64,000 bases of DNA from an uncultured Candidatus Micrarchaeota archaeon (GCA_903835385.1 CAILMQ010000013.1:2687-66686); one strand, 5' to 3'. Counted from the first letter of the stretch, positions 3,911 to 59,647 are shown. The notes: generated by a model not told the origin, from the letters alone. Translations and numbers: made by a program.

Positions 3911-4372
3911 ATGGTTGAATGCTGCCCGGAATTCAAGCCCGAGTCATTGGACAGGAAAACGCTGGAATACTCCGACAAGCTTTTTCTCAAGGAGCACTCC
4001 CTGGCGCTGTTCCACATCCCGCTCACCATAAACTCCGCCATGGCGCGCGCGATGAAGATGATAACCGGCGCAGGCGCAATCGTGCCGGACGGGGTCATGC
4101 TCTTCCATGAGAAATCCATGTGGGGCACGGACATCTACATAGAGGTGAAAAAGGACGTTCCGGGTGCCAGGATGGAGCGCATAAGCGGGACCTTCATGAC
4201 AAAGGTCTACGAGGGGGATTACAAGCAGATGATGGGATGGATGAAGGACATGCAGGCATATGTCACAAGCAAGGGCAGGACAATGAAGGACTTGTACGCG
4301 AACTACCGCTACTGCCCGGCGTGCGCGAAGAAGTTCGGGAAGAACTACGTCGTGCTGTTCGCGAAGGTGTGA
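3911..4372 (+). CDS. hypothetical protein with C-terminal CPAC zinc-ribbon-like motif
   Basis: 153-aa ORF in an intergenic-sized gap. No recognisable family. Confidence 0.45.
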   Translation: MVECCPEFKPESLDRKTLEYSDKLFLKEHSLALFHIPLTINSAMARAMKMITGAGAIVPDGVMLFHEKSMWGTDIYIEVKKDVPGARMERISGTFMTKVYEGDYKQMMGWMKDMQAYVTSKGRTMKDLYANYRYCPACAKKFGKNYVVLFAKV

Positions 4373-19966: not shown

Positions 19967-21175
19967 TCACCTGGTTTTATACCTTAGGAACGCCCCGATT
20001 CCGCCGAACCCGGCCAGGAATTGCGCGCCTTCGGTGGTGTTCGTGGACACTATCTCTACCGGGATGTTGTTCCCCTTGGCAAGGTCCGCGAGCTCGTCCA
20101 CGAGCGACTCCTCTCCTTTCAGGCGCATGGAGGCGTTGCATTTCGGGCACGGGATGCGCTCCTCAGGCTTGTCGCGCGTCACGCGGAAATCCTCGCTTGC
20201 GCAGCTCGGGCACAGGTAGCTCGCCTTCTTGTGGGGCAGGCCTTCGGAAAGCAGCACCTTTTCCGCCTGCTTTGACATTATGGCCTCTCGCACCGGCTTC
20301 TCGCCGTAGGTGGCGAGGCCTTCGGACACTACCTCCTTCATGAACGAGTCCACGAGCTTCTTCTCCTTTATGGCCTCCTGCTCCTCCAGCAGCGATTCGC
20401 TCTTGGCGAGCACCTCGCGTATGCCGTACTCGTCGGTGTAGCCCGTGTCCACGGGGCCGAGTATCTTGTGCTGGTAGTTGAACGGCGACATCTTCAGGAA
20501 GTTGTCCTTGGTAGGGCCCGGCCCCCCTACGAGGATGGCCTTGGTCCTGCCGAGGAAGTGATTGTCCATGGCCTCGCCCACGCGGACGTAATACTTCTCT
20601 ATGGACTCCTCTATGAGCCGCTGGTAGCGCCTCGCCGACTGCCCTCCCTTCCTGATTTTCTGGTGCGCCGTGGAGTTCATCTTCTTGACTATGTGTATCT
20701 CCGTGCCCCGTATCAGGGCCAGTGTCGCCTCCCTGCCGTCCATCACCACCACGCCGTAGGAGTCCGTGACCTCCACCATGCGCTGTAGCGGCTCCAGGAA
20801 GAAACGGGAATCGCACCTGTAGATTCCGACCTGTAGCTGCTGCGGCGGTTCCAGTGAGAATATCTCTATGTCCGTCTTGGCCGGGTTGTCGGATATGTTG
20901 CCGCAGAACACCGCGATGCCGTTGGCAGGCGCCTTCTTGAAAAGCTTCAGGTGGCCCATTATCCTCTCGAGCGCGCCCATGACGTTCGTGCGCGTGGATT
21001 TTGATTTGATGTTGGACGCCTGGGACAATTCCTCGCGGAGCTTGTTGCCCATCTCGTGCACCGGCGAGCCCGCGGGTATGTACACCGATATGAGCTCGGT
21101 GCCGCTGCCCTTGTACTCGCCCAGCTTCCTTAGCGTCTTCTTGAGGGTATAGACCCTTTCGCTGTCAATCGCCAT
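19967..21175 (-). CDS. prf1: peptide chain release factor aRF1
   Basis: NIKS motif (NIKSKSTR), GGQ motif (KIRKGGQSARRYQR), and a Zn-ribbon insertion in domain 3 (CPSC...CPKC). Confidence 0.9.
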   Translation of the reverse strand: MAIDSERVYTLKKTLRKLGEYKGSGTELISVYIPAGSPVHEMGNKLREELSQASNIKSKSTRTNVMGALERIMGHLKLFKKAPANGIAVFCGNISDNPAKTDIEIFSLEPPQQLQVGIYRCDSRFFLEPLQRMVEVTDSYGVVVMDGREATLALIRGTEIHIVKKMNSTAHQKIRKGGQSARRYQRLIEESIEKYYVRVGEAMDNHFLGRTKAILVGGPGPTKDNFLKMSPFNYQHKILGPVDTGYTDEYGIREVLAKSESLLEEQEAIKEKKLVDSFMKEVVSEGLATYGEKPVREAIMSKQAEKVLLSEGLPHKKASYLCPSCASEDFRVTRDKPEERIPCPKCNASMRLKGEESLVDELADLAKGNNIPVEIVSTNTTEGAQFLAGFGGIGAFLRYKTR

Positions 21176-30000: not shown

Positions 30001-30045
30001 TCTCTTTTGCTGGCACGAACGATATTATTAACTTAACGTTAAGTA

Positions 30046-31398
30046 TTATAAACTATTATTAGTTTGTAATACCTTGACGTAATATGCCCCCCGCGTTCTA
30101 CCGACTCTCCTTAGCAGTCCCCTTTTTATGAGGTCGTTCAGGTCTGAAACTGCCATTGGATGTGAAACTGCAGCCATTTTCTCGTATGTTTTTGAAGTTA
30201 GAGAAGGATTCTTTTCTAGGTATGATATAGCTCGTTTTTGCCGCTCATTAAGGTCTGCTCTAGCTATGTGCGATTTGTTGCATAGTGTCACTCTGAAGAA
30301 GCTTCCCAGCTCTTCAAAAATGGGTTCCGGCAAGCCCGTCTCTTTCATTGCTGAACGCATTCTTGGTATGCCTGTTGCAAACCCTTCAATCAGTTTAAGG
30401 TCGCGCAAGAGTCGGTAAGTTAAATGATTTCTAGGAACTGAAATACTGCCCAAAATCTGAAGGCTCAAACCCGTTGGCAGCGTGCCAGGGTTTATGAACT
30501 CAATTCTGTCATCAAAAATATTTATTTGAACTGCATCCCGACTTAGATAATCTCGATGAGTTAGGGCGTTTATCAGGGCTTCGCGTATAACTGGGAACGG
30601 ATATTCTGGTTGTTCCTCCCGCTCCAACTTTTCTATTTTTACGGCAACACGCGTATTCTTCTTTATGAACTCTTCAGCTTCCTTTAGGTTTTCCAAAATA
30701 GTAGCCTTGACAATCCTTGAATCGATTATGTCGACTGGCTGATCACCCCTAAATCTCACGAGCTTAATTTCATTTTGGGGTAAAAATCTGGCCGGTTCTT
30801 TTGCGAAGAATAGAATGGCTGTGTTTTTTATCCATGAGTCGCCATTTTTACCTAGCAACCCTAAGTTGAATAGGTATTCTTGAACTTTGGTCTCGTCGAA
30901 CACGAGTTCTGGCGACCGTTTCTTTACAAATTCTTGTATCTTGTTTATATTCAAATCTTCGAGCTTTGCTTGTGAGCGTGACTCGTCAAAAGAGAGGATG
31001 TGCCGGTTAATCAGATAATCCTGAAGCGTTCGCCCTTCCAGTTTGGTATTGCTACTGCCAGCGCGGTAATATACTATGCCCCCGAAGGTGCAAAACGCTC
31101 CTTGGCCAATTTGATAGATTTCGCATACTACTGTTTTCTTTCCTTCTTTCTCCTCAACAAAGATTTTGTGGAATGGAACTGGAGAAACTTGTTGTATCGC
31201 TCCTTCAAGGCGCTGTTGCAGCGAATCGATCTCTTTCGCTGGAACGCCTATTGTTTTACCATCATCTGCAATTCCAATAACTATCTTACCGCCGGAGGCG
31301 TTGGCGAAAGCGCAGGTAGTCTTGCTTATCTCTTTGAAATTTTCTACGCTGTGCTTGAATTCCAAGCCTTGGCTTTCCGTGTTCATAGAATCCACCAT
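30046..31398 (-). CDS. AlbA_2 (Schlafen-like) DNA-binding domain plus HATPase_c_4 ATPase protein
   Basis: N-terminal ...ESQGLEFKHSVENFKEISKTTCAFANASGGKIVIGIADDG...; the C-terminal winged helix resembles the RecG-C-terminal/AlbA_2 family (weaker call). Lies in a low-GC segment. The ORF-track N-terminal extension to 31899 is spurious. Confidence 0.6.
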   Translation of the reverse strand: MVDSMNTESQGLEFKHSVENFKEISKTTCAFANASGGKIVIGIADDGKTIGVPAKEIDSLQQRLEGAIQQVSPVPFHKIFVEEKEGKKTVVCEIYQIGQGAFCTFGGIVYYRAGSSNTKLEGRTLQDYLINRHILSFDESRSQAKLEDLNINKIQEFVKKRSPELVFDETKVQEYLFNLGLLGKNGDSWIKNTAILFFAKEPARFLPQNEIKLVRFRGDQPVDIIDSRIVKATILENLKEAEEFIKKNTRVAVKIEKLEREEQPEYPFPVIREALINALTHRDYLSRDAVQINIFDDRIEFINPGTLPTGLSLQILGSISVPRNHLTYRLLRDLKLIEGFATGIPRMRSAMKETGLPEPIFEELGSFFRVTLCNKSHIARADLNERQKRAISYLEKNPSLTSKTYEKMAAVSHPMAVSDLNDLIKRGLLRRVGRTRGAYYVKVLQTNNSL

Positions 31399-31436
31399 AT
31401 CGTTAAGTATCTGTAAATAATAATACTTAACAATAT

Positions 31437-31733
31437 TTAAAGATATGCACGTATGGCAAGCACCCACCCGATGCAGAAGGACAGTGTTTCCCTGTCGAAT
31501 GCCTTTTTCGTATAATTGTATTCCGCAGCCTCCTTGGGGAACATGCTTGAGAGTTCGGCATAGCTTAGGGCCGTGAATATGGCGATGGCTGCCGAGATGA
31601 GGAATGCGAGCCAGAGCATGTCCCCGGCGAGCCCGGCTCCGATGGCTATGAGCGCGTATATGCCCGCGCCCAGTATCACGCCTATGCCGTACATCGTTGT
31701 GCTGAATAGCCCGAGCCCGCGTTTGAGCGCCAC
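31437..31733 (-). pseudogene. N-terminal remnant (TM1-2) of an APC-family amino-acid permease, truncated after ~98 codons
   Basis: MALKRGLGLFSTTMYGIGVILGAGIYALIAIGAGLAGD...SYAELSSMFPKEAAEYNY is a canonical APC N-terminus. The reading frame stops exactly where the low-GC island begins. Confidence 0.55.
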
Positions 31734-31785
31734 GATTCATGCTGTGAAATCCCATTTTTAAAAATCTTCCTTCCGAAAGCCCCCT

Positions 31786-32784
31786 ATGGCCAAAAAACCA
31801 CAGACTGAAAGCCGCAAGAGGGACCATATCCAGATAGCCCTGGAAAAGGACGTGCAATACTGCCGCACCACCGGCCTGGAGCGGGCGGAGCTTCTCCACA
31901 ACGCGCTTCCTGAAGTGGATTTCGATTCCATTGACCTTTCCATGAAATTCCTCGGGAAGAAGATATCATGCCCCCTGCTCATCTCGGCCATGACCGGCGG
32001 CTATCCTGAAGCGAAAAAGATAAACGAGGAGCTTGCCGCCGCCGCGCAAAAGCACAACATCGCCTTCGCGCTCGGCTCCCAGCGCGCCATGCTCGAGAAC
32101 CCCGCGCTCAGGGAAACCTATTGCGTGAGGAGCGTCGCACCGGACATCCCGGTAATAGGCAACATCGGGGCAATGCAGCTCAAGAGCTGCCCGGTGGACA
32201 AGGTGCTCGGGCTCGTGTCCGCAGTGGAGGCGGACGCTCTCGCAGTGCATCTCAATCCGTTGCAGGAGGTAATCCAGCCAGAAGGCGACCGTGATTTCTC
32301 AGGCGTGCTTGCCGCAATCGCGAAGCTGTGCGAGAAATCCGGCGTGCCAATAATAGCCAAGGAGACCGGGACAGGAATCTCCCAGGACGTTGCGCTGAAG
32401 CTCAAGGAGGCGGGCGTGGCCTGGATTGACGTCGCAGGCGCGGGCGGTACATCCTGGTCAAAGGTGGAGTACGTGCGCAACGGCGCGACACCCGGCTTCG
32501 GGGAGTGGGGGATACCTACGCTGGATGCGCTCATAGAGTGCAGGGGCGTGCTTCCCATGATAGCCAGCGGCGGCATCAGGAGCGGCATTGACGCGGCGAA
32601 GTGCGTCGCGCTGGGCGCGGACTTGGCAGGTGCCGCCTATCCGTTCCTCAAGGCCCTGGGCCGCAGCCAGGCGAAGCTCGACGAGACGCTCACGCTCTGG
32701 GAGGCGCAGATGAAAAAGGCGGCTTTCCTCACCGGGTGCAGGACGAGGGACGAGCTCAAGAAGGCGAAGATGGTTTTCCGCTGA
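31786..32784 (+). CDS. fni: isopentenyl-diphosphate delta-isomerase, type 2 (FMN-dependent)
   Basis: TIM-barrel IDI-2 motifs (SAMTGG, ...GAGGTSW..VE...), 332 aa. Confidence 0.85.
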   Translation: MAKKPQTESRKRDHIQIALEKDVQYCRTTGLERAELLHNALPEVDFDSIDLSMKFLGKKISCPLLISAMTGGYPEAKKINEELAAAAQKHNIAFALGSQRAMLENPALRETYCVRSVAPDIPVIGNIGAMQLKSCPVDKVLGLVSAVEADALAVHLNPLQEVIQPEGDRDFSGVLAAIAKLCEKSGVPIIAKETGTGISQDVALKLKEAGVAWIDVAGAGGTSWSKVEYVRNGATPGFGEWGIPTLDALIECRGVLPMIASGGIRSGIDAAKCVALGADLAGAAYPFLKALGRSQAKLDETLTLWEAQMKKAAFLTGCRTRDELKKAKMVFR

Positions 32785-35206: not shown

Positions 35207-35339
35207 CGGTTTCGCCCCTTTATTGCGAAACGTTTGTTCATTCATTTTTTAAACAATGCTGTCAAATGAAAGGCAAAATCATGAAAAATATTATATACGG
35301 CACGCAACGAATCAGCGTAACGATAAAAACGGTGGGAAC

Positions 35340-36674
35340 ATGGCGCAAGCGAAAAATGAAATCTTCGAGAGGGTGGAAAAGGACGGGGTGAAATTCGTGA
35401 ACCTGCAGTTCACGGACCTGCTGGGAATGGTGAAGAGCATAACCCTTCCTGCAAGGCATTTGGACAACGCGTTCCAGAACGGCGCATGGTTCGACGGCTC
35501 CTCGGTGGAAGGGTTCGCGAGAATCCACGAGTCGGACATGTACCTGAAGCCAGACGCGTCCACATACGCGGTGATACCATGGCTCGATTCGGACAAGGGG
35601 CAGACCGCGAGGTTCATCTGCGACGTCTACAGCCCCGACGGCAAGCCGTTTGCCGGTGACCCGAGGCACATACTGAAAAGGACATTGGCCGAAGCCGAAT
35701 CAATGGGCTTCGAGTACAAGACCGGGCCGGAAATCGAGTTCTTCCTGTTCAGGAGGGAGAACGGCGCCCTGAAGCCCCTGCCGCACGACACCGGCGGCTA
35801 TTTCGATTTCACCTCCGACAAGGCATACGACGTGCGCAGGGACATGAACGTGGCGGTGGAGGCTTTCGGCATCAACGTGGAGGCCTCGCATCACGAGGTC
35901 GCCCTGGGCCAGCACGAGATAGACTTCCGCTACGACAACGCGCTCCGCTCCGCGGACGCGACCTCGACCGTGCGCTTCGTGCTCAAGGCAATCGCCCAGC
36001 GCCACGACCTGCACGCGACCTTCATGGCAAAGCCCATCGCAGGCATAAACGGGAGCGGCATGCACGTGCACCAGAGCCTGTTCAGGGGGGCGGACAACGC
36101 CTTCTACGACGCGTCGGACAAATACGGGCTGTCCAAGGAAGCGTATTCCTTCATCGCGGGCCAGCTCGCCCATGCGAAATCCATGGCAGGCATACTTTCG
36201 CCCACCGTTAACTCGTTCAAGCGCCTGGTGCCCGGCTACGAGGCGCCGGTCTATATCTCCTGGGCGAGGATAAACCGCTCGGCCCTCATACGCATACCGA
36301 AAATCTCCGCCGGAAAGCCGGGCAGCACGCGCATAGAACTGCGGTGCCCTGACTCGACCTGCAACATCTATCTCGCCTTCGCCGTGATGCTGAGAGCCGG
36401 GCTTGCGGGCATAAAACAGGGGCTGGTTCCGCCTGAGCCGGTGGAGGAGAACCTGTTCCATTTCGACGACAAGAAGCTGGAGGCCATGAAAATCGCCACT
36501 TTGCCGCATTCCCTCTGGGACGCGCTCAAGGAGATGAAGGCCGACCCGGTGATACGGGAAACGCTCGGCGACTCGACGTTCGCGAAATACGTGGAGGCCA
36601 AGACCGAGGAATGGGACTCCTTCCGGCTCCATGTCACGCAGTGGGAGCTGGACCAGTACCTTGAGAAGTATTGA
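35340..36674 (+). CDS. glnA: glutamine synthetase type I
   Basis: GS beta-grasp and catalytic motifs (KPIAGINGSGMHVHQS, NSFKRLVPGYEAP). Start at MAQAKNE. Confidence 0.9.
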   Translation: MAQAKNEIFERVEKDGVKFVNLQFTDLLGMVKSITLPARHLDNAFQNGAWFDGSSVEGFARIHESDMYLKPDASTYAVIPWLDSDKGQTARFICDVYSPDGKPFAGDPRHILKRTLAEAESMGFEYKTGPEIEFFLFRRENGALKPLPHDTGGYFDFTSDKAYDVRRDMNVAVEAFGINVEASHHEVALGQHEIDFRYDNALRSADATSTVRFVLKAIAQRHDLHATFMAKPIAGINGSGMHVHQSLFRGADNAFYDASDKYGLSKEAYSFIAGQLAHAKSMAGILSPTVNSFKRLVPGYEAPVYISWARINRSALIRIPKISAGKPGSTRIELRCPDSTCNIYLAFAVMLRAGLAGIKQGLVPPEPVEENLFHFDDKKLEAMKIATLPHSLWDALKEMKADPVIRETLGDSTFAKYVEAKTEEWDSFRLHVTQWELDQYLEKY

Positions 36675-37981: not shown

Positions 37982-38095
37982 GGTTCCACTCCCGCAATTT
38001 AATACTGGTTATGGATATCCGGTTATGTTTATTAATTTACCCCATCCCAGCGCGGTTGCGCGTGTTTAAAATACCTTTGTTACATAAATTATAAC

Positions 38096-39592
38096 ATGTC
38101 AAGAAGGCAGACCCCGGGCCCTACAGTGGCTCCCACGTGCGCGGAGCGGCCCCCCAGGCAGAAACCGAAATTCCCAGAACCTGTGCCAGAGCCCCGCAGC
38201 CAGCCGGAGGGCGGCGAAAGCCTGCTCGGGAAAGTGCTCGATGGCAAATACCTCATTATCAAGAAACTCGGTTCAGGCGGCATGGGACAGGTATATCTCG
38301 CCGAGGAACAAGAGGGAGGCAGGCAGTTCGCCATAAAAGTGCTGGACTCATCGGGCCGCCCCGGCCTTTTCCAGAAGGAGGTCATGGCTCCGATAGACAT
38401 CGGGCACGAGAACGTGGTCAACATGTTCGGCTATGGCAGGACGTCCAAGGGGCCCGACGGCTACCCGTTCATAGTGATGGAATACCTTAAGGGCATGGAC
38501 TTGGGCAAGCTGCTTGAAAGCAAGACGCGGCTCGACTGGCCCAGGGCCAGGGACATAATACTGCAGGTCTGCGACGCGCTCCAGGCAGCCCACCAGCAGG
38601 GGGTGGTCCATTTGGACATGAAGCCCATGAACGTATTCCTGGTGGACCGTCCCGGGAAGCCTTTTGTGAAGGTCCTGGATTTCGGCATCTCCAAGCTTTC
38701 CGAAGAAATGGCCGGCGCAGAGGCTTCCTCGGGCAGGGGTTTTATCGGCACTCCGGCATACGCGCCGCCGGAGCAGGCACACGGGTCCAAGGAGTGCGAC
38801 CATCGCTCCGACATATATAGCGTTGGCGTCATGCTCTATGAGATGCTTTGCGGCAGCCTGCCCTTTGTCAGCGATGCTCCGCCCGGCGAACGCGTCAAGG
38901 ATATCATGCGCATGCACGCGGAGTGCGAGCCGCCGCCTTTCTCCACCCACGGTCCTACGACCGGCATACTGGACGGCGTCGAGGCCGCGGTCATGCGCTG
39001 CCTTGCGAAGAAAAAAGAGGGCAGGTTCCAGTCCATGACCGAACTGGCACGGGCGCTGCCCGCCGTAGGAAGGCCGTCGCAACCGGCCCGGGCGCTGGAG
39101 CTGCCGGAGGGGGACCTTGAAACGAGGCCGCGGCTCAGGACGCAGAAGTCTTCGCCCCTGGCCGCAATAATCACAGCCGCGCTCATCACGTTCGGGGCGG
39201 CCGGAGCATGGCTCTACTACACCCGCCACGACAAGGGCGCGGTTCCTGCGGAACAGGACGCGCAGCCAGTTGCCGTTGCCGGGCCAGACGCCTCAGCCGA
39301 GCATCCTGCTGAAAAAAAGAAACATGCTTCTAAGGGCGCGTCCAACGCCGGGCCCGTTTCGCCTGCGAATGCCGGGGAGGCGAAGAAGCAGGCTCCTAAG
39401 AAGCCCCGTGGCCGGGCACACGGAACCGGCACGTCCGAAGCCGAGAGTGCCGCGCCTGCCGAAGATTCCGAACACGGGCAGCAACCCGACAAGGAAGCGT
39501 CCGAAAACGATCCGAATAATAACATTGGCGAGCAGTCCGGTCCGGACGAAGAGGAGCCTTCGAACGAAAGCGAGGCTGAAGAATCAAAATAA
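38096..39592 (+). CDS. Hanks-type (eukaryotic-like) Ser/Thr protein kinase with TM segment and acidic low-complexity tail
   Basis: GSGGMGQVY (G-loop), AIKVL (VAIK), HLDMKPMNV (catalytic loop; non-RD, HLD in place of HRD), DFGISK, GTPAYAPPE. TM segment LAAIITAALITFGAAGAWLYY. Confidence 0.85.
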   Translation: MSRRQTPGPTVAPTCAERPPRQKPKFPEPVPEPRSQPEGGESLLGKVLDGKYLIIKKLGSGGMGQVYLAEEQEGGRQFAIKVLDSSGRPGLFQKEVMAPIDIGHENVVNMFGYGRTSKGPDGYPFIVMEYLKGMDLGKLLESKTRLDWPRARDIILQVCDALQAAHQQGVVHLDMKPMNVFLVDRPGKPFVKVLDFGISKLSEEMAGAEASSGRGFIGTPAYAPPEQAHGSKECDHRSDIYSVGVMLYEMLCGSLPFVSDAPPGERVKDIMRMHAECEPPPFSTHGPTTGILDGVEAAVMRCLAKKKEGRFQSMTELARALPAVGRPSQPARALELPEGDLETRPRLRTQKSSPLAAIITAALITFGAAGAWLYYTRHDKGAVPAEQDAQPVAVAGPDASAEHPAEKKKHASKGASNAGPVSPANAGEAKKQAPKKPRGRAHGTGTSEAESAAPAEDSEHGQQPDKEASENDPNNNIGEQSGPDEEEPSNESEAEESK

Positions 39593-39593
39593 A

Positions 39594-39822
39594 AAAAACG
39601 GGCCTCTGATTGCCCTGTGGGGCAATTCGGTCCGAATTTCCTGAGGCAAAACTCAAGCCTGGAAACTGATTACAAACGAAATTCGGGCCTCTGATTGCCC
39701 TGTGGGGCAATTCGGCCCGTTTTTCCGGAGTCAAGGCTCAGGCTGGCACCTTTCAAAAGAAGAAAAAACGGGCCTCTTAGTGACCTCACTTCGTTCGGTC
39801 ACTTCGCCCCGTTTTCCTTGAG
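39594..39822. repeat. three tandem palindromic hairpin elements sharing aaaacgggcc...ggcccgtttt arms (two with an identical 33-nt core)
   Basis: 39594-39645 and 39673-39728 share cgggcctctgattgccctgtggggcaattcgg. 39763-39822 has the same arms with a different inner hairpin. On the minus strand each is followed by a T-run (candidate terminators). Confidence 0.6.
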
Positions 39823-39860
39823 CCGGCGCTAATGCCGATATCGATAAAAAGAAGGGAAAA

Positions 39861-40007
39861 CGGGCCTGGAGGGATTGTCAGTCTGGCGGACAACGCCCGC
39901 CTCGACATTTGAACCCTCGGCCTGCGGATTAAAAGTCCGACGCTCTACCATTTCAGGCCTTGCCTGAAAAACTTGCCATCAGGCAAGGCTAGCTGAGCTA
40001 CAGGCCC
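39861..40007 (-). tRNA. candidate tRNA-Lys (anticodon UUU) with insertions (putative introns) in the D-loop (~40 nt) and between the T-loop and T-stem (~33 nt)
   Basis: Minus strand: GGGCCTG-TA-GCTC-AG[...]TGGTA-GAGC-G-TCGGA-CTTTTAA-TCCGC-AGGCC-GAGGG-TTCAAAT-[33 nt]-CCCTC-CAGGCCC-G. Acceptor 7/7, D-stem and T-stem are perfect. The anticodon stem has one mismatch. Confidence 0.45.
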
Positions 40008-40575
40008 GTCTGTGCTTGACTTATGCATTGCCGCGCTCGACGCATCGAGCACGCTCGCGGTCGAATCTCGACCGCGACATCTCATTATCCAGTCTTTCGT
40101 TGTTTTACTTCTATGTTCCATGAATACGTGGGCTCCAATATTCTCAAGGCCACGTAAGTCGTTTTCGCGTTTTCACTTTAACGAACGCGCGAAGTAAAGT
40201 TCTACTGAAACTATTTAAAAACATGCACGGCAATAAGAAACGTCCGATGGGAGGTACAAACCAAACACCGAGCGACTGACGGAGCGCGAGTCGAATTGAA
40301 GACGACGTCTCTAAAGAAAACAGTAAGAATGAGAGAACAGAAAGAAAACAAGAGCCAGGTTGGCAGATCGGCTATGCGGCCGCCTGCAGTCGCCCGCTTT
40401 CTTGCGGGCGGCACAAAGCGGCACAGGGTGGTTCAACTCCTCCACCTGGCTTTTTTAGCGTCAGGGACGCGGGCAATCGCCCGGTCCTCGCACGCGAAGG
40501 AACCCGGCGTTTCCCCGGATGGCGAGCCCGGGCGAAGACATCTTTTTAAAAACTTCCACACATCCACTGCCGTAG

Positions 40576-41574
40576 GTGTGCGTCATGCAGCTTCACAAAA
40601 ATAGGATTTACGGAACCGTATCGGACAACCCGCAGAAGCATCCGCTGGAAAGGCATCCTCTTATCGAGCGGATTGGACGCAGAACGAAGCTCGCATTTGC
40701 AGGCGCGGCAGTGGCGGGCCTTGCATTCATAGCCTCGCCACAGAAAGTGAGCGGGCAGGACGATATGCGGTCCATCGCATCTGTTCTGAGCGGTCGTAGC
40801 AATGTGAACGCAAAGAACATCAATGGCAAGACCGCGCTCATGGATGCTGCAGGGGCCGGGCGCATGGGAGCAGTCGTTCTGCTCCTGGAAAACGGCGCCG
40901 ACGTGAATGCGAGGGACAAGAATGACGAGACGGCGCTCACGTACGCCGTAAAGGGCGGATACGCCAAAACAGCCGCTCTGCTCCTGGAAAAGGGCGCTTT
41001 TGTGGATGCGAAGTGCGGATTCACCCGGGTCGTACTCATGTGCGCTGCATCGTCCGGGTACACCGAAATCGTCAAGTTGCTCGTGGAACACGGTGCCTAT
41101 GTCAATAGGAGCGACCTCAGTGGTAAGACCGCGCTCATGCTCGCTGCAAAGGGCGGATACGCCGAAATCGCCGAGCTGCTGCTGAAAGGGCCTGGTGTGA
41201 ATGCAAAGGACGTATCAGGTTGGACCGCGCTCATGTACGCTGCATCTGCCGGGAGCGCAGAAACAGTCTGGCTGCTTCTGGAACATGACGCTAATGCGGA
41301 CGCGAAGGCCAAAGACGGCAAGACCGCGCTCATGAATGCCGCATCGGCTGGAAACCTAATTGCGGTCGGGCTGCTGCTGAAAAAGGGCGCCGATGCGAAT
41401 GCAAAGGACATCCACGGTACGACCGTGCTCATGTATGCTGCTAAGGATGGGCGCATAGAAATAGCCAGACTGCTCCTTAAATGCGGTGCTGATGCGAATG
41501 CAGAGGACTTATTTGGCCACACTGTGAGTGATTACGCCGAAAACCCAAAAATCTACGAGCGCCTGCATGAATAG
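40576..41574 (+). CDS. secreted ankyrin-repeat protein (about 8 ANK repeats) with N-terminal signal/anchor
   Basis: Repeated G.TALM.AA..G...V..LLE.GADVNA units. Hydrophobic LAFAGAAVAGLAFIASP near the N-terminus. Confidence 0.85.
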   Translation: MCVMQLHKNRIYGTVSDNPQKHPLERHPLIERIGRRTKLAFAGAAVAGLAFIASPQKVSGQDDMRSIASVLSGRSNVNAKNINGKTALMDAAGAGRMGAVVLLLENGADVNARDKNDETALTYAVKGGYAKTAALLLEKGAFVDAKCGFTRVVLMCAASSGYTEIVKLLVEHGAYVNRSDLSGKTALMLAAKGGYAEIAELLLKGPGVNAKDVSGWTALMYAASAGSAETVWLLLEHDANADAKAKDGKTALMNAASAGNLIAVGLLLKKGADANAKDIHGTTVLMYAAKDGRIEIARLLLKCGADANAEDLFGHTVSDYAENPKIYERLHE

Positions 41575-49621: not shown

Positions 49622-50200
49622 TCAAGAGCCTCTGACGGCGTTGAGCCAGAGGCCGCTTGCCGCCAAGTCGGTATCCTTATATCCAGCCTCGGCCGCCGCC
49701 TTCATGACATTTTCCATGTCCTCAATCGCTTCGCATCTCAGGCAGGTGTATTCCAGCGCCTTCAGGGCGCTCCTCACCAGCCCGGCGTCATCCAGATGCG
49801 CCATGCTGAACTTCTTGAGCGGCTCACGCCCTGCCGCGAGCGCCACCTGGCCGCAGTGGTCGGAACCGATGTTCCTGAGGGCTTTGAGCATGGCTGCCTT
49901 CACCGCCCGTCCTTCGTCGCCGGGCTCGCTCTCGCGGGCAAGGGCATGGAGGAGCGGCTCGAAAGAATAAATGGAACGCAGGCGCCCGAGTGTCTTCGCG
50001 GCGCTTTTGCGTTCTGCCGCCACCGCGCTTCCGAGCTGGTTCTGTGCCAGCGTGCATTCAAGCTGCGTACTGCCGTGGAGGCGCCGCAGCTCGCGCTTCT
50101 GCCGCGCGAGCACTATCGCGTATACATCCTCCAATCCCTTGGGCGCTACGGGCCAGTGGCGCCTGGCGGCTAGTTTGTCATTCCGGCTCATGTATGCCAT
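49622..50200 (-). CDS. short HEAT/PBS-lyase-repeat protein, paralog 2
   Basis: TLGRLRSIYSFEPLLHALARESEPGDEGRAVKAAMLKALRNIGSD. About 60% identical to paralog 1. Confidence 0.65.
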   Translation of the reverse strand: MAYMSRNDKLAARRHWPVAPKGLEDVYAIVLARQKRELRRLHGSTQLECTLAQNQLGSAVAAERKSAAKTLGRLRSIYSFEPLLHALARESEPGDEGRAVKAAMLKALRNIGSDHCGQVALAAGREPLKKFSMAHLDDAGLVRSALKALEYTCLRCEAIEDMENVMKAAAEAGYKDTDLAASGLWLNAVRGS

Positions 50201-50225
50201 TATGGCTTTTGATGTTTAAAATGGT
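50196..50225 (-). promoter_or_regulatory. conserved promoter block of HEAT paralog 2
   Basis: attatggcttttgatgtttaaaatgg. Confidence 0.5.
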
Positions 50226-50340
50226 TTGTAAGGCGGAGGGGGGAGGCCGGGATAGACGAAATATAGACGAGAGGTTAAGATAAGTCGGCAGGTCATCGCC
50301 TCCCGATAGGTCTAAAATCTTTGGGAAAGAAGTAGAATTC

Positions 50341-51381
50341 ATGAAAAGATTTGTGATACTGTTTCTGATTCTAGGGTTGTTTATTGCTGGCTGTACTCAA
50401 CAAGCCGAAACAAAAAATATAGGTTCAAACAAAACCATCTCGAACGAGACTCAAACCCAGCCGAATCGAACCGTTCCGCCTCAACAAGCACCCATACAAA
50501 CATACGCCTGCCCGGACGGAACGATTGTCACAAACTTGACAAATTGCCCAGCACAAACAGCTAATAACAGTCAAACAACTTCAGAAAACACCAGCATAAC
50601 AACATATGTATGCTTCGATAATTCGACAGTGGACGACTCAACAAAGTGTCCTCCGGCTCCGACCATCAATGTTTCTAAAGATTATTGCAGTGATGGAACC
50701 AAAAAGCTCGCTTGTTCTATAACAAAGCCCATTTTTTGTGACGTCAGTCTCGAACTCGTAGAGAAAGCCAGCAGATGCGGGTGTCCGGCGAATTCGGATC
50801 CTTATCAGGATACATGCTTACCGAGATGTTCCGACGGCACACATTCTGGTTCGTGCAGTTCTACTAAACCCGAAAAATGTTATAACGGAACATTGACAGA
50901 TGTTCCTGCGAGTTGCGGTTGCCCGGTAGGGTATAAATATGATGGTTCAACTTGTGTTGTTCATGTTATGTCACCCGAGGAACTTTTCGTGAATACCTCG
51001 GTCTTACAAAACAGGTATGCTGGATTGACTAACTTCGATGTAACTGTTGTTCGAGCCGGTTATTATGAAGAAACATCATTTTTAACTACGGAGCGATATA
51101 TTCGACTTGATATAAACATTAAGAATCGTGGAGACAAACCAGAATATCTATTTGCTTCTCATATGTCGCTTGTCGATAGTAATAACCACCAATATTCGGA
51201 AACTTATGGCGGCACTTTTGAAGGTGGGGAATTTCAATCGGGAGTAGAAAGTAGTGGGTCGGTTTTATTCGATTTAGGAAGTTCTACGATGCCGGATGAA
51301 GTAACCTTGCACATCGATGATGGGTACGATAATAACTTCAAAATAATCGTTAAAACAGTTATAATTACATTAAAGAACTAG
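50341..51381 (+). CDS. Cys-rich secreted lipoprotein (lipobox IAGC) with repeated CPDGT modules
   Basis: MKRFVILFLILGLFIAGCTQQ signal/lipobox, at least five CP(D/A)GT/CGCP repeats. Low-GC gene. Confidence 0.6.
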   Translation: MKRFVILFLILGLFIAGCTQQAETKNIGSNKTISNETQTQPNRTVPPQQAPIQTYACPDGTIVTNLTNCPAQTANNSQTTSENTSITTYVCFDNSTVDDSTKCPPAPTINVSKDYCSDGTKKLACSITKPIFCDVSLELVEKASRCGCPANSDPYQDTCLPRCSDGTHSGSCSSTKPEKCYNGTLTDVPASCGCPVGYKYDGSTCVVHVMSPEELFVNTSVLQNRYAGLTNFDVTVVRAGYYEETSFLTTERYIRLDINIKNRGDKPEYLFASHMSLVDSNNHQYSETYGGTFEGGEFQSGVESSGSVLFDLGSSTMPDEVTLHIDDGYDNNFKIIVKTVIITLKN

Positions 51382-51426
51382 TTCGCCTCTCGACATGTCT
51401 AAAAATCTTGGGAAAGTAACAAATAC

Positions 51427-51804
51427 ATGGAAAAAGTCGTGATGCTGATTCTGATTTTTGGTTTACTCTTTTATGGTTGCACAAATCAAATCACCGGAAA
51501 TGTTTTGAATCAACATGCTGCAGTTGGTTGTTGGGTTTCAAACAGTTTGGCTATTGCAAAGATTGAGATAAACTCTGACGATACATTCGCAGCGTATACG
51601 CAAAATCCTCAGACTGGAGCATATTCAGTGGCATATAAGGGCAAATGGGTTGCAGAAAACGAAACGACGATTATAATGTCATATCAACTAAATAACGATA
51701 TTGTGAATCAAACAGCGACATATGTAGAAAGTACCGATTCCGTAGTAACATCAATATTAATCCCAATGGTTGGTCAGTTCCCAGAAACATTGTATAGATG
51801 TTGA
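51427..51804 (+). CDS. small lipoprotein (YGC lipobox), paralogous signal peptide
   Basis: MEKVVMLILIFGLLFYGCTNQ. Its upstream block is nearly identical to that of the 50341 gene. Confidence 0.45.
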   Translation: MEKVVMLILIFGLLFYGCTNQITGNVLNQHAAVGCWVSNSLAIAKIEINSDDTFAAYTQNPQTGAYSVAYKGKWVAENETTIIMSYQLNNDIVNQTATYVESTDSVVTSILIPMVGQFPETLYRC

Positions 51805-51901
51805 ACATGTATGAAAGTTATACCCAGAGCGCGCTCTGGCTCCGTTTTGGAGGGGAACGAGACGCCCTTACATTTAAATCGCTTGACGTTGTAGTGAAAT
51901 T

Positions 51902-53164
51902 ATGAAATTTGGATTCGTTGTATTACTTATTTTCGGACTTTTTATTGCTGGTTGCACCCAACCGACTACTCCACAACCAAAACAGACATATTTATGCCCT
52001 GATGGAAGCATTGTAACCCAGATTTCAGATTGCCCCAAAGCAATACAAACATATTCCTGTCCAGATGGTTCAGTAGTCACAGACATGTCTTCTTGCCCGA
52101 AGCAGACCTGTCCAGATGGAACCGATTACGGTTCTTGTTCTAATCTAAAGCCAATGTTCTGTCAAAATGGTCAGTGGATACCTAATGCCTCCGCGTGTGG
52201 TTGTTCCAGCGGATACGATATATCCGGGGACAATTGCGTTCCGCATGTAAATACCTGTAGTGATGGTACGATGTACGATGCCTGCTCTTTAACGAAACCC
52301 AAATATTGCTCTAATCTAGGACTTCTAATTGATGATGCCTCCACATGCGGTTGCCCTAGTGATTACGATACCTCTGGCAATGGCTGTACTCTCCACATAA
52401 GTTCCAACACGAATAGTTATAGTTTTACATCATATGAAAACACAGAGCCGTATTATAGCGCGTTTTGTGATAAAATTGACCCATATGATTTGAGTGTTCG
52501 TAAAGCTGCTGCAGATGCTATTAGAACCGATCCAGGGTCTTATAGCGTCAGTCAGCTTTTTGATATTTATGATTGGGTAATACAAAAGATATTTTATCAA
52601 AATTCTCCTTTAGCGGGTACTCCTTTCCCCCCATCAGAAACTTTAACGACTGCCTCCGGGGATTGCAAAAATCAGGCAGTTCTGATAGCATCCATGGTTC
52701 AAGCAATAGGTGGAACAGCCGAAGTTGTTGCAGATCCGACTTGCTCTCATGCGTATGCTGTAGTGTATTATGGTCCGTCTGGAAGCGATATGAGCTCCTT
52801 TACGCAAGCAGTTGCTAATCATTACGGTTCAAGTGTTAACGTACACTACTTTACCCATAACAATGGCTTCTGGATCATCTTTGATCCGGTTGGTGGAGCA
52901 TATCCTGGAGATACAATGCCCGAATGCAGCGGAAGCGAAGATCGTTATTTTATCAAAAGTTGCTTGGAATGTGTCCACCAATTTTCCAATGAGCCATACA
53001 CGTATGGTGATAGATGCTACTCTCAATGTCCATCTGGAACAATTACAGCGAACAAATATGCCTGCCAGCCTTGTTCAAAAGGCTCTTATAGCTGTAATGA
53101 TCAGTGTCTAACCTGTCCTTCCGGGTATTATATGGCCACCAATTGCAGGTGCTACAAATCTTAA
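51902..53164 (+). CDS. Cys-rich lipoprotein with transglutaminase-like cysteine-protease core
   Basis: MKFGFVVLLIFGLFIAGCTQP signal. CPDGS repeats. SGDCKNQAVLIASMVQAIGG...H...D matches the transglutaminase-like C-H-D pattern. Confidence 0.6.
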   Translation: MKFGFVVLLIFGLFIAGCTQPTTPQPKQTYLCPDGSIVTQISDCPKAIQTYSCPDGSVVTDMSSCPKQTCPDGTDYGSCSNLKPMFCQNGQWIPNASACGCSSGYDISGDNCVPHVNTCSDGTMYDACSLTKPKYCSNLGLLIDDASTCGCPSDYDTSGNGCTLHISSNTNSYSFTSYENTEPYYSAFCDKIDPYDLSVRKAAADAIRTDPGSYSVSQLFDIYDWVIQKIFYQNSPLAGTPFPPSETLTTASGDCKNQAVLIASMVQAIGGTAEVVADPTCSHAYAVVYYGPSGSDMSSFTQAVANHYGSSVNVHYFTHNNGFWIIFDPVGGAYPGDTMPECSGSEDRYFIKSCLECVHQFSNEPYTYGDRCYSQCPSGTITANKYACQPCSKGSYSCNDQCLTCPSGYYMATNCRCYKS

Positions 53165-53246
53165 TTATTAAAAATTTTCAATATAAAGCTTCTAATGGCG
53201 CTAAAATACCTAAAGTTTAACTTAGAAAATATAAAGGCCACGCCCA

Positions 53247-53295
53247 GATTGAACTCGTGACCTCGTCCTCTTCGGAGACAAAAAGCCTTACCTTC
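53247..53295 (-). other. partial duplicate of tRNA-Thr (anticodon, intron-start and 3'-exon segments), candidate attachment-site remnant
   Basis: GGTAAGGCTTTTTG...GGACGAGGTCACGAGTTCAA(A)TCT is shared with the intact tRNA-Thr at 54494-54643. It lacks the 5' exon and the acceptor 3' end. Confidence 0.4.
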
Positions 53296-53845
53296 CTTCC
53301 CTGAACCTTCTCCTGTCCTTTTTTATCTGGGATTTCAGGGCGAATCTTCCATACGGGGTTTCCTTGAACTTCGCGCCTTCTATGCTTTTTACCTTGTGGA
53401 AGACGATTTTATTGCCGTAATACGACAGTATGGCGGCTATCTTCTTCGCCCTGAACGATTTTTTCCTTTCGTTCCTACGGATTCTCTCGGCAAGGTCGAT
53501 TCTGCCGCTGCGTTTTGTATTTACAACGTGAATTTCACCCGAAGGAGTCCATTTCAGGCCAAAAAATTCTTCGGCGGTAGTGCAACTAAAGTAAAAGTCT
53601 CCTGTGGCGAGGTAAAGCTGTAATGCTTTTTTGAGGGCCAGGCTAGGCCTATCGATGAACCATGCTTTTTTTTCTTCCGGTGATGGCACGTAATAAATCC
53701 CTTTAAACGGGGTGGGGAAGAGGTTCAGCGACGCGCTTAAGTTTTTTATCTGGGGTCCGCTCAAACCGTCTTTGATCAACTGACCGAACTGTATGGCCTG
53801 CTTAGGAAGCATTTTCAACGACCTCGTTAAAGAATTTGTAATCAT
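53288..53845 (-). CDS. hypothetical protein, partner of the AbiEii-like gene (possible antitoxin-like component)
   Basis: 185-aa basic protein. Overlaps the upstream nucleotidyltransferase gene by 44 nt. Low-GC. Confidence 0.4.
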   Translation of the reverse strand: MITNSLTRSLKMLPKQAIQFGQLIKDGLSGPQIKNLSASLNLFPTPFKGIYYVPSPEEKKAWFIDRPSLALKKALQLYLATGDFYFSCTTAEEFFGLKWTPSGEIHVVNTKRSGRIDLAERIRRNERKKSFRAKKIAAILSYYGNKIVFHKVKSIEGAKFKETPYGRFALKSQIKKDRRRFREGR

Positions 53846-54392
53846 CTTCGCTTGTAATATACTCCTTTATCCCCTCTAGGTTATCCGGCCGGCCATATTT
53901 GGCAAGTAATTCTTTTACCAGGTCGAATCCCCTGTCCATCTTTTTTAAGATGAAAACGATGTCAAACAGGTCGCGGGCGGCTTTCCTGTTTGCGTATGCT
54001 TCCAGTTTCATCACAAGAAGATCATCCAATGACGCAACGGATAAAGGCACGCCTGAAACTTCGAAAGTCTCTATCTTTTTTATTTTTGCGGTCGGATAAA
54101 AAATCTCTATTTTTATGCTTGTATCCTCAAACTGGACCACAAACTGATTCGTATGGCTGGCAACAGATGTTCTATACCCCTTTTTGGTAAGACAACCCTT
54201 CATCATCTCCTTTAATTTGACTTCATCTCCTTCCAAAGGAACAAAGTCCAAATCAACGCTTACTCTGTGGTTAAGATAGAAAATGGCGAGCGCAGTCCCT
54301 CCAACCAGGATGAGCCGGTTTTGTGCGCATGCGGCAGTGTCGCTGAGGATTTCGAAAACCCGTTTGTATTTGAGGGCGAACTTCTGATTCAT
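53802..54392 (-). CDS. AbiEii/DUF1814-family nucleotidyltransferase (type IV toxin-antitoxin/abortive-infection toxin-like)
   Basis: LILVGGTALAIFYLNHRVSVDLDF matches the GGTAL...R.S.D.DF signature. Confidence 0.6.
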   Translation of the reverse strand: MNQKFALKYKRVFEILSDTAACAQNRLILVGGTALAIFYLNHRVSVDLDFVPLEGDEVKLKEMMKGCLTKKGYRTSVASHTNQFVVQFEDTSIKIEIFYPTAKIKKIETFEVSGVPLSVASLDDLLVMKLEAYANRKAARDLFDIVFILKKMDRGFDLVKELLAKYGRPDNLEGIKEYITSEDDYKFFNEVVENAS

Positions 54393-54493: not shown

Positions 54494-54643
54494 AGCCCTC
54501 GACGAGATTTGAACTCGTGACCTCGTCCTTTTTGCGGCGTTTGACTTGCTTACCTCAGGGCTTTTTCCAGGGTTTTTGCCCGTATAAGGGCGTAAGTCAA
54601 AAAGCCTTACCAAGGACGCGCGCTACCACTGCGCTACGAGGGC
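54494..54643 (-). tRNA. tRNA-Thr (anticodon GGU) with a canonical-position (37/38) intron of about 85 nt
   Basis: Minus strand: GCCCTCG-TA-GCGC-AGTGGTA-GCGC-G-CGTCC-TTGGTA[intron]A-GGACG-AGGTC-ACGAG-TTCAAAT-CTCGT-CGAGGGC-T. All four stems are perfect. Confidence 0.75.
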
Positions 54644-58540: not shown

Positions 58541-59591
58541 TCAGGTTGCCGGCCCTTCCTCGCGCGGCGCCTCATATCCCCATTCGGCCCGATGCCTCAG
58601 GAGCGTCTCGCGCATTTTCTTCTTGCCTTCGCTTATTATCTGCATCACCCGTTGCCTTGAGACGTGGTTATCCATCCCGATCTCAAGTGGCGTGCGCGGC
58701 TGGCAGCCGCCCACTCCGAACTGGCTCCGTATCATGCCCGCTTCCCTTGGTTTCAGCGTGGCAAGCAGCCTTTCCGCAATCTCCCTTTGCGAAAGCATCT
58801 CCTCAGGCGTCCCGGCGCGCCTGTCCGGAATCATTTCTATGCGCCTCGGCCCGTCCCTCGGGAGCTTTTGGTGCATGCTGATTATCCTGGGCACCGAGGA
58901 GGAATTGATTATGGCGCTCCTTCTGAGCCCGGTCCCATCCGCTATCTCGTCAATGTCCGGGTACCTGCCGGTGAGGCAGAAGCGGGCATTTGAGAATTTT
59001 TCCACCCTGTTGGTCACAAGATGCAGATAGGGCGGCTTCCTGATTTCATTTCCTTCCTCATATACCAGGAGCCACATGGCCCGCTTTGCCCAGTCCATCG
59101 CATAGCTGTAGAACCTGGTGCCCCTTTCCAGGTCGAATTTGGGCATCGCGTATTTCACGATGGCCGCCTCGCCGACCTGGACAAGGTCCTCGACCTTGAC
59201 GCCTGCGGGGCGCCTTATTCCCCTGGCTTTTTTCCAAACCAGCCTGCCAAGCCCCCGCGTGACTATGGTTTCAGCAAGCCCTTTCGCCTCCTCAAGCCGC
59301 TTAAGCTCCTGGCTTATGGCCGCAGAATCCTCGTTTGCCTTGCTGCCCAGCGTTTTCGCCAGTTCTTCCATGCGCGCAAGCGCCTGCCCGTAAATCGCAA
59401 ATAACCTGCGCTCATCCGGTTTGGATATGCGCTCCTTCTTCTCCGCTGCGAGTTGCTGCAGGAACTGCATATCCGGAGTTTTCACAACCGGCCTGTGGGC
59501 ATCGGTCCTGCATTGGACCAGCCGCAGGGCCGGGCGGTTGCATTCAAAAGCAGTGCGAACGATCATTCTTGCTGTGCGCATGGGAAAATAA
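58541..59591 (-). CDS. sigma-70-family protein homolog 1 (regions 1.2/2/3/4)
   Basis: DLVQVGEAAIVKYAMPKFDLERGTRFYSYAMDWAKRAMW...IRKPPYL parallels RpoD region 2 ([44 protein letters not shown]). Region 4-like REAGMIRSQFGVGGCQPRTPLEIGMDNHVSRQRVMQI. Start placed at MRTARMIV downstream of the conserved promoter block (the track ORF starts at 59638). Confidence 0.8.
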
Positions 59592-59593
59592 TT

Positions 59594-59637
59594 TGATAAG
59601 ATTCGCGTATAAACCATCGCATTTTGTGACTGCCACA
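59594..59637 (-). promoter_or_regulatory. conserved promoter block (TATA TTTATACG about 26 nt from the ATG) of sigma homolog 1
   Basis: aataatttgataagattcgcgtataaaccatcgcattttgtg. A near-identical block lies upstream of sigma homolog 2. Confidence 0.55.
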
Positions 59638-59647
59638 ACTCTTCCTG

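Follow-up and report, generated by a model that had tools for sequence, protein, structure and literature searches.

The locus at positions 39861..40007 raises the question of whether a tRNA gene that is interrupted twice, at two non-canonical positions, can still code for a functional tRNA. It is located on the minus strand of a DNA stretch of 64,000 nucleotides from an uncultured Candidatus Micrarchaeota archaeon (GCA_903835385.1 CAILMQ010000013.1:2687-66686), to which we refer in its full length as the window. A first-pass annotation had proposed a tRNA-Lys(UUU) gene carrying one insertion in the D-loop and another one in the T-loop region, with a disrupted tRNA pseudogene as the alternative. 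Our analysis of the sequence indicates that the locus is very probably a functional archaeal tRNA-Lys(UUU) gene with two protein-spliced introns of the bulge-helix-bulge (BHB) type. The gene spans 147 nt and consists of three exons and two introns, with G1 at position 40007 and the discriminator base G73 at position 39861; the CCA end is not encoded. With the introns set in brackets, the 5' part of the minus-strand sequence reads GGGCCTG TA GCTC AGCT[AGCCTTGCCTGATGGCAAGTTTTTCAGGCAAGGCCTGAAA]TGGTA GAGC G TCGGA CTTTTAA TCCGC AGGCC, and the 3' part reads GAGGG TTCAAA[TGTCGAGGCGGGCGTTGTCCGCCAGACTGACAA]T CCCTC CAGGCCC G. Every stem of the cloverleaf that had been proposed was found on this strand: a perfect acceptor stem of 7 bp (GGGCCUG/CAGGCCC), the D-stem (GCUC/GAGC), the anticodon arm (UCGGA-CUUUUAA-UCCGC; 4 bp plus a U27.C43 mismatch that is common to all orthologues) and the T-arm (GAGGG-UUCAAAU-CCCUC), together with the variable loop AGGCC. 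In the spliced form, the T-loop is UUCAAAU and the D-loop is AGCUUGGUA, the latter containing A14, G18G19, and A21. These conserved tRNA nucleotides, as well as U33 and U54U55C56, are all kept in the exons, and when both inserts were removed in silico, ARAGORN recognized the resulting 74-mer as tRNA-Lys(ttt) with a normal cloverleaf.

Exon 1 (nt 1-17; 39991..40007) provides the 5' strand of the acceptor stem, U8 and A9, the 5' strand of the D-stem, and the D-loop nucleotides A14-U17. It is followed by intron 1 (40 nt; 39951..39990), which is inserted into the D-loop between U17 and U17a. Exon 2 (U17a-A59; 39908..39950) comprises the remainder of the D-arm, the anticodon arm, the variable loop, the 5' strand of the T-stem, and T-loop positions 54-59; the anticodon UUU (Lys) is found at 39931..39933, as assigned by ARAGORN on the spliced form and by comparison with relatives. 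Intron 2 (33 nt; 39875..39907) separates A59 from U60 within the T-loop, and exon 3 (39861..39874) supplies U60, the 3' strands of the T-stem and the acceptor stem, and G73. All of these features are on the minus strand, and the limits of both introns were taken from the parse of the BHB motifs. Splicing is predicted to create the exon junctions ...GCUCAGCU|UGGUAGAGC... at the site of intron 1 and ...GGGUUCAAA|UCCCUCC... at the site of intron 2. Two other classes of interrupted tRNA genes were rejected at this stage. Since the exons are collinear and all three lie inside 147 nt, the gene is neither split nor permuted. Group I and group II introns are self-splicing ribozymes of several hundred nucleotides that usually reside in the anticodon loop, and this class does not fit inserts of 40 and 33 nt that are situated in the D-loop and the T-loop and have no match to any intron family in Rfam.

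To place the splice junctions, we enumerated all positions compatible with the mature sequence and scored each of them for BHB geometry; i.e., on each strand a 4-nt strand of the central helix followed by a 3-nt bulge that is cut after its second base. A BHB motif, whose absence the first-pass annotation had named as an argument against two introns, was found at both junctions. Intron 1 permits a single placement (...GCUCAGCU | A...GAAA | UGGUA...). Its central helix is formed by four out of four possible base pairs between the exonic UCAG (U12-G15; 39993-39996) and the intronic CUGA (39953-39956), and it is flanked by the bulges CU|A (39990-39992) and AA|U (39950-39952). On the intron side there is a perfect helix (helix B) of 11 bp (39979-39989 / 39957-39967). 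The first-pass annotation was correct about the presence of this insert, which it had put at approximately 40 nt and which measures exactly 40 nt, while the 10-bp hairpin that it described is one base pair longer. On the exon side, the outer helix is weak (C11-G18 followed by mismatches), and the motif is a relaxed one (hBH/BHL-like). Because its central helix borrows U12-G15, the D-stem must open for this motif to form.

For intron 2, four registers are equivalent at the sequence level, and the BHB motif exists only in the one that places the intron at 59/60 (TTCAAA|T...CAA|T); the registers 57/58, 58/59, and 60/61 have no such motif and were rejected. The length of 33 nt given for this insert in the first-pass annotation is right; its placement, behind TTCAAAT at the junction of loop and stem, has to be shifted into the T-loop. 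The central helix pairs UUCA (U54-A57; 39910-39913) with the intronic UGAC (39877-39880) through 3 bp and a U.C mismatch. In both bulges the sequence is AA|U, the T-stem with its 5 bp serves as the outer exon helix, and the intron side consists of GUC/GAC followed by a GC hairpin of 7 bp, so that the motif is nearly a strict hBHBh' motif. Both introns of the tRNA-Lys gene therefore possess the same 3' bulge, AA|U. A conformer of the precursor in which both BHB motifs are formed has a predicted free energy of -67.7 kcal/mol, compared with -70.3 kcal/mol for the unconstrained minimum free energy (MFE) structure, a difference of 2.6 kcal/mol. The precursor as a whole folds much better than shuffled sequences (z = -4.9).

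Relatives of this locus were found by way of the glutamine synthetase (GlnA) gene, which is located about 3 kb away (35256-36674), and by two pattern scans. The first one searched contigs representing one genome per species for the pattern of exon 2, which had to be contiguous, and the second one searched metagenomes for copies in which the T-loop is interrupted. The exon-2 scan matched six metagenome-assembled genomes (MAGs) of the DPANN group, five of them labelled Micrarchaeota and one labelled 'Candidatus ainarchaeum sp.'. In one of these six, an intronless gene that is identical in all 74 positions to the predicted spliced product is present on a complete Micrarchaeota chromosome of 1.57 Mb (OY970229.1; L010), and this gene scores 74.5 bits on the Rfam tRNA model RF00005, whose gathering score is 29. 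Because this relative encodes the same 74 nt contiguously, the two inserts in the window interrupt an otherwise perfectly conserved tRNA. A further intronless tRNA-Lys(UUU) gene, which is syntenic with that of the window, occurs in L001/L002 (Ga0315275_10000866 and an ENA contig). It matches the spliced product in 73 of the 74 positions, with one difference in the variable loop, and scores 72.5 bits on the Rfam tRNA model; the GlnA proteins are 82% identical, and upstream synteny is kept over glmS, a PQQ-repeat protein, L11, a RelA/SpoT-like protein, AsnC, and GlnA. The splice junctions deduced for the window hence restore exactly the sequence that relatives encode contiguously, and the interrupted tRNA-Lys with two non-canonical introns that the first-pass annotation had suggested is borne out by both ARAGORN and the intronless orthologue.

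Other relatives carry introns of their own. The gene on JAQTME010000031 (L005) contains a 40-nt intron at 17/17a that is homologous to intron 1 of the window and identical to it in 34 of 40 positions. Five of the six differences fall into helix B, where pairing is kept: two base pairs have changed on both sides (U-A to C-G and C-G to U-A), and a third change, from G-C to G-U, preserves pairing on the tRNA strand only. Neither the central helix nor the bulges differ from those in the window. Read from these two sequences, window and L005, and hence as modest evidence, the covariation shows that selection at the RNA level has for some time preserved the structure of intron 1. In four other MAGs (L006, L007, L008, and L009), the gene possesses an intron of 35-53 nt at 15/16 (GCUCAG|...|CUUGG); in these genes, an intronic GAGC, GAGA, or GCGC pairs with the D-stem strand GCUC to form the central helix, and the 3' bulge is AA|C. 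The single match of the metagenome scan (Ga0315268_10004939; L011) combines an intron of 36 nt at 15/16 with one of 46 nt at 59/60. The latter shares the identical junction with intron 2 of the window, is unrelated to it in sequence, and forms a central helix UUCA/UGGC, the bulges AA|A and AA|U, and an intron helix of 6 bp. L012, a contig from the same 90% GlnA cluster as the window, carries a 71-nt intron at 37/38. The style of the 3' bulge is alike in the introns at 15/16 and 37/38 of the relatives and in the intron of the tRNA-Cys gene of the window, being mostly AA|N, with AG|C in one case. Three further contigs from the closest relatives (L013, L014, and L015) end before any tRNA-Lys gene is reached.

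Among eleven orthologous loci, whose exons are identical or differ by 1 nt, there are consequently six intron configurations: no intron, 15/16, 17/17a, 37/38, 15/16 plus 59/60, and 17/17a plus 59/60. This count is shaped by the sampling, as the genome scan demanded an uninterrupted exon 2 and the metagenome scan an insert in the T-loop. So many configurations at identical exons imply that introns are gained and lost fast at this locus. The orthologues form a clean natural set in which to study the gain, loss, or shift of BHB introns and the range of substrates that the splicing endonuclease of Micrarchaeota has to accept, including a D-loop intron that requires melting of the D-stem.

The interrupted gene escapes the usual detection tools. 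ARAGORN, either with default settings or with the -i option, made no call on the unspliced locus, and Rfam gave no match to it at the gathering threshold or at E<=10. When only intron 2 was removed, ARAGORN mis-called the sequence as a tRNA-Phe with an intron, and the L005 gene received the same mis-call; the orthologue with two introns in L011 was likewise missed. A MAG annotated with ARAGORN or with Rfam/Infernal tRNA scans would consequently seem to lack tRNA-Lys(UUU), and misses of this kind distort inferences on completeness and codon usage for DPANN genomes.

Upstream of the gene, an alignment with L012 and L001 revealed a conserved TATA-like box, GGATAATGAG (40081..40090, minus strand), which, judged from this conservation, is probably the promoter. 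It is located about 25-31 nt upstream of G1 in L012 and L001 and at about -75 to -84 in the window, where it is displaced because of a GC-rich insertion of 51 nt with two hairpins (40030..40080, minus strand). This insertion is situated between the box and the 5' end of the tRNA, is absent from L012 and L001, and is probably included in a long 5' leader. We rejected it as a third intron, located in the leader, since no BHB motif above noise was found at its ends.

A locus that standard tRNA finders do not recognize, and that has a third insertion between its conserved TATA-like box and the gene, might be regarded as a tRNA-Lys pseudogene which two, or counting the leader three, GC-rich hairpin insertions have inactivated, with its function taken over by another tRNA-Lys(UUU) copy. 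Such a copy could lie in the genome outside the 64-kb window; within the window there is none. The exons argue against decay, since they show not a single substitution relative to the intronless orthologue on OY970229.1. Moreover, both inserts end exactly at sites that form BHB motifs with the same 3' bulge, the D-loop insert has been kept in L005 with compensatory changes, and L011 exhibits the same layout of two introns, with different intron sequences. The gene is also part of a syntenic and apparently single tRNA-Lys/tRNA-Cys locus of this clade. We therefore regard inactivation, the alternative offered by the first-pass annotation, as highly improbable for a gene whose 74 exonic positions all agree with those of a functional-looking orthologue and whose inserts both possess BHB motifs.

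The inserts might also be recently acquired mobile or duplicated DNA that is tolerated because it can be spliced, perhaps partially (e.g., with efficient removal of the T-loop intron only), so that the locus would represent a snapshot of intron gain. The six configurations at near-invariant exons fit such a scenario, as does the finding that L012, the closest relative according to GlnA, is devoid of both introns and has one at 37/38 instead. Synteny breaks off at the 3' flank of the gene, and the transposition and gain of introns in connection with mobile elements have been proposed in the literature (PMC4090602; PMC3293823). Against this stand the compensatory changes that separate intron 1 of the window from that of L005 and the fact that no other copy of the introns or of the leader insert exists in the window or in 15 loci of relatives (~150 kb). 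In a short-word blastn search of the window and these loci (~210 kb), neither the two introns nor the leader insert recurred, except for the homologous intron of L005, and the same search, when queried with the tRNA-Cys intron, the tRNA-Thr intron, and one unit of the downstream repeat array, yielded no further copies. The notion that the introns are copies of a dispersed mobile element was rejected on these grounds. Recent acquisition appears highly unlikely to us; moreover, it concerns the origin of the introns and is compatible with a functional gene.

An artefact of assembly or binning, in which tRNA fragments were joined chimerically, might be suspected in a window that stems from metagenome assemblies (ENA ERZ1426835 and others), yet it has a negligible probability, since an independently assembled contig has the same order of neighbouring genes, in agreement with the map of open reading frames (ORFs) of the window, since a chimera would not produce precise BHB registers or inserts whose removal restores a perfect tRNA, and since the same intron (L005) or the same layout (L011) recurs in assemblies made independently from other samples.

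Several points weigh against a functional gene with two introns. The BHB motif of intron 1 is without a firm outer helix on the exon side and is in competition with the D-stem, which the MFE structure keeps. The 51-nt insertion that displaces the TATA-like box could impair transcription if no new start site were used. Finally, a scan of 36 ORFs of the window with Pfam and NCBIfam found no splicing endonuclease (EndA).

For a functional tRNA-Lys gene with two introns, we infer the steps of transcription, cleavage, and ligation, and the type of enzyme involved, as follows. Transcription from the minus strand would start probably at the TATA-like box and yield a precursor with a leader of ~50 nt, which RNase P would trim. 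In each intron, the 3' end is expected to pair with the exon just upstream of the 5' splice site, forming a central helix of 4 bp and two 3-nt bulges. Each bulge would then be cut after its second nucleotide; i.e., after U17, after the intronic ...GAAA, after A59, and after the intronic ...ACAA, with the T-stem acting as the outer helix for the excision of intron 2. The relaxed, BHL-like substrate offered by intron 1 would call for a splicing endonuclease of broad specificity, and by analogy with ARMAN-2 the enzyme to be expected in Micrarchaeota is an EndA of the epsilon2 type. We do not expect that one intron has to leave before the other, given that they lie about 80 nt from each other and have non-overlapping motifs. 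The exons would be joined by an RtcB-type ligase, and RNase P, RNase Z, and the CCA-adding enzyme would complete the 74-nt tRNA; because no CCA is encoded, 3' trimming and the post-transcriptional addition of CCA would have to follow.

Such a pathway would be in keeping with what has been reported for the lineage. The window is archaeal, encoding Orc1/Cdc6 (7443-8510), aRF1 (19967-21175), and membrane proteins with the domains DUF63 and DUF2070. The best named homologues of its GlnA protein are proteins from Candidatus Micrarchaeota MAGs; in the current NCBI taxonomy, Micrarchaeota are listed as Microcaldota in the kingdom Nanobdellati (DPANN). In ARMAN-2 (Candidatus Micrarchaeum acidiphilum; Fujishima et al. 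2011, PMC3239211; Hirata et al. 2012, PMC3488258), a member of the same phylum, 56% of the tRNA genes are disrupted, and introns are found at various non-canonical positions (PMC3239211). ARMAN-1 and ARMAN-2 are among the lineages that possess tRNAs with multiple introns (PMC4033280), and the remark in the first-pass annotation that such tRNAs, with introns at non-canonical sites, occur in a few archaeal lineages thus applies to Micrarchaeota themselves (PMC3239211). Like the tRNA-Lys gene studied here, ARMAN-2 genes have short BHB or relaxed-BHB introns outside 37/38 as well as two introns in one tRNA, and the central helix is built from the 3' end of the intron and exon sequence. The site 59/60 has also been described: pre-tRNA-Cys(GCA) carries a relaxed-BHB intron there, and pre-tRNA-Pro(GGG) carries two T-loop introns, at 53/54 and 59/60 (PMC3239211). 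The three-unit epsilon2 endonuclease of ARMAN-2 cuts both strict and relaxed BHB motifs (PMC3239211), and relaxed-BHB introns are removed efficiently only by enzymes belonging to the types (alpha-beta)2 and epsilon2 (PMC6379350). Introns in the D-arm and the T-arm are known in Archaea (PMC12397907; PMC4090602); the D-loop sites 17/17a and 15/16 were not found among the positions listed in the literature consulted, including the list given in PMC4090602 (20/21, 22/23, 25/26, and others). The gene in the window differs from those of ARMAN-2, an organism from acid-mine habitats, in that the tRNA is Lys(UUU), that one of the introns resides in the D-loop at 17/17a, and that the host is a sediment-type relative among the Micrarchaeota with a neutral GC content (~57%).

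Outside this phylum, the multi-intron tRNAs of Thermoproteales and other Crenarchaeota were, as summarized in reviews, reportedly described by Sugahara in 2008 and by Fujishima in 2010. These organisms resemble the clade studied here in having BHB introns at many positions, including the T-loop, with up to three introns per tRNA, in their relaxed hBH/HBh' motifs, and in the rapid turnover of introns between close relatives (PMC4090602; PMC4033280). They belong to a different phylum and possess EndA of the (alpha-beta)2 architecture; in addition, near-identical introns recur in different tRNAs of Thermoproteales, which is evidence for transposition, whereas no second copy is present in the DNA that we examined. 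In the tRNA-Thr(GGU) of Caldiarchaeum subterraneum (Sugahara et al. 2012, PMC3293823), the number of introns at one orthologous locus also varies between close genomes, and tRNA fragments are likewise found near the gene. There, however, a recombinase-encoding element of 1.8 kb lies between the tRNA fragment and the gene, whereas here the nearby copies cover 7-13 nt of the tRNA 3' end within an array of hairpin repeats of 85-92 nt, and no recombinase was found among the flanking ORFs scanned. In concept, the tRNA-Lys gene with two introns adds to the picture gained from ARMAN-2 and Thermoproteales without altering it, as this type of gene is already known in the lineage.

The array just mentioned is located directly downstream of the gene (39594..39860, minus strand) and consists of three units of 85-92 nt with direct and inverted copies of the tRNA 3' end and small hairpins. 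Each unit comprises a direct arm (AGGCCCG, a run of T/A, and CC), a spacer of ~37 nt, an inverted arm (GG, a run of A/T, and CGGGCC), and a hairpin of 20-30 nt. The motif GGCCCGTTTT, which according to the first-pass annotation is shared by the 3' end of the tRNA and the adjacent repeats, is real: the first direct arm of the array is the tRNA-Lys gene's own 3' acceptor strand, discriminator, and trailer. In the window, AGGCCCG-TTTT is confined to 39594-39867, apart from one match with a single mismatch at 62909, and we accordingly rejected it as a genome-wide terminator or repeat. One or two units follow the tRNA-Lys gene in L001 (~15300-15490), L011 (1305-1400), and L012 (~4100-4227), while none was found behind this gene in L005-L010, which are more distant. 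When seven units were aligned, it was seen that pairing between the direct and the inverted arm is kept in 84.6% of the cells and that four pairs have changed on both sides (e.g., UUUUCC/GGAAAA, AAAUCC/GGAUUU, and AAUUUC/GAAAUU). In 500 shuffles the covariation score always stayed below the observed one, and sliding the partners against each other abolished the signal. Derived as it is from seven related sequences, this covariation is suggestive rather than conclusive. Rfam has no match at the array hairpins. They were also rejected as H/ACA-like small RNAs, since the ACA triplet found behind the hairpin in L001, L011, and L012 is situated inside the outer stem and is absent from the copies in the window. 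As candidate explanations, the array might be a structured module acting as trailer or terminator, a set of tRNA-end fragments duplicated in tandem, or recombination scars at a synteny breakpoint linked to the tRNA.

This breakpoint is the 3' flank of the tRNA-Lys gene, as seen by comparing the window (37982-39860) with L012 (3403-4228) and L001 (12867-15492). Beyond it, the window encodes a Ser/Thr kinase (38096-39592), L012 has an ORF of 188 amino acids (aa), and L001 has two ORFs of 147 aa and 623 aa, the latter with a beta-helix. One might speculate that the tRNA-Lys(UUU) locus of this clade is a hotspot at which introns are continuously gained, lost, or slid along the gene, perhaps through a mechanism connected with the downstream array; we put this forward with considerable doubt. 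The D-loop introns of the tRNA-Lys orthologues occupy two sites that are 2 nt apart, and a hairpin of 3' end and trailer comparable to those of the array is also predicted for the tRNA-Thr gene of the window. If the array were an element that employs the tRNA end for recombination or processing, it would represent a new element linked to tRNA genes and provide a handle on the acquisition of BHB introns.

Two further tRNA genes with introns are present in the window. The tRNA-Cys(GCA) gene (40353-40452, plus strand) is oriented divergently from the tRNA-Lys gene and contains an intron of 27 nt at 37/38 (40390-40416); it was missed by Rfam even at E<=10 and detected by ARAGORN with the -i option. 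L001 and L012 have conserved this divergent Lys/Cys pair, and in L009 the two genes are likewise close together. The tRNA-Thr(GGU) gene (54494-54643, minus strand) has an anticodon-loop intron of ~78 nt, and its 3' acceptor strand and trailer are predicted to form a hairpin of 14 bp with a downstream copy that resembles the gene's own 5' end. No clear hairpin of this type, formed by the 3' end and the trailer, was seen for the tRNA-Cys gene in the window. In L005 (~290-440, minus strand) and L009 (1347-1479, plus strand), the tRNA-Cys(GCA) gene apparently carries two introns, one in the anticodon loop and one of ~22 nt in the T-loop. A parse by hand places the latter at 58/59, where GUUC/GAAC forms the central helix and the mature loop is UUCAACU, as in the window; this intron resembles the T-loop intron of the ARMAN-2 pre-tRNA-Cys (PMC3239211). 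A more distant member of the Micrarchaeota (GCA_040758595.1; L003 11640-11837, L004 4449-4646) possesses, just downstream of the GlnA gene, a tRNA gene of 198 nt with an intron of ~122 nt, which scores 52 bits on Rfam and is labelled Leu(aag) by ARAGORN.

The tRNA-Lys/tRNA-Cys pair of the window is flanked by genes for the eukaryote-like Ser/Thr protein kinase (38096-39592, plus strand) and for a multi-ankyrin-repeat protein (40576-41574, plus strand). Elsewhere in the window, two tandem ORFs (58541-59638 and 59648-61144, both on the minus strand) contain the bacterial sigma-70 regions 2, 3, and 4 (RpoD C-terminal, E=5e-48), which is unexpected since the contig is otherwise archaeal. In addition, there are islands of low GC content (30001-32000 and 50001-54000), with values of 0.43-0.455 compared to ~0.57-0.60 elsewhere. 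The ORFs within them either have no match to a protein family or encode DUF4352 or transglutaminase-like domains, and these islands may have been acquired horizontally.

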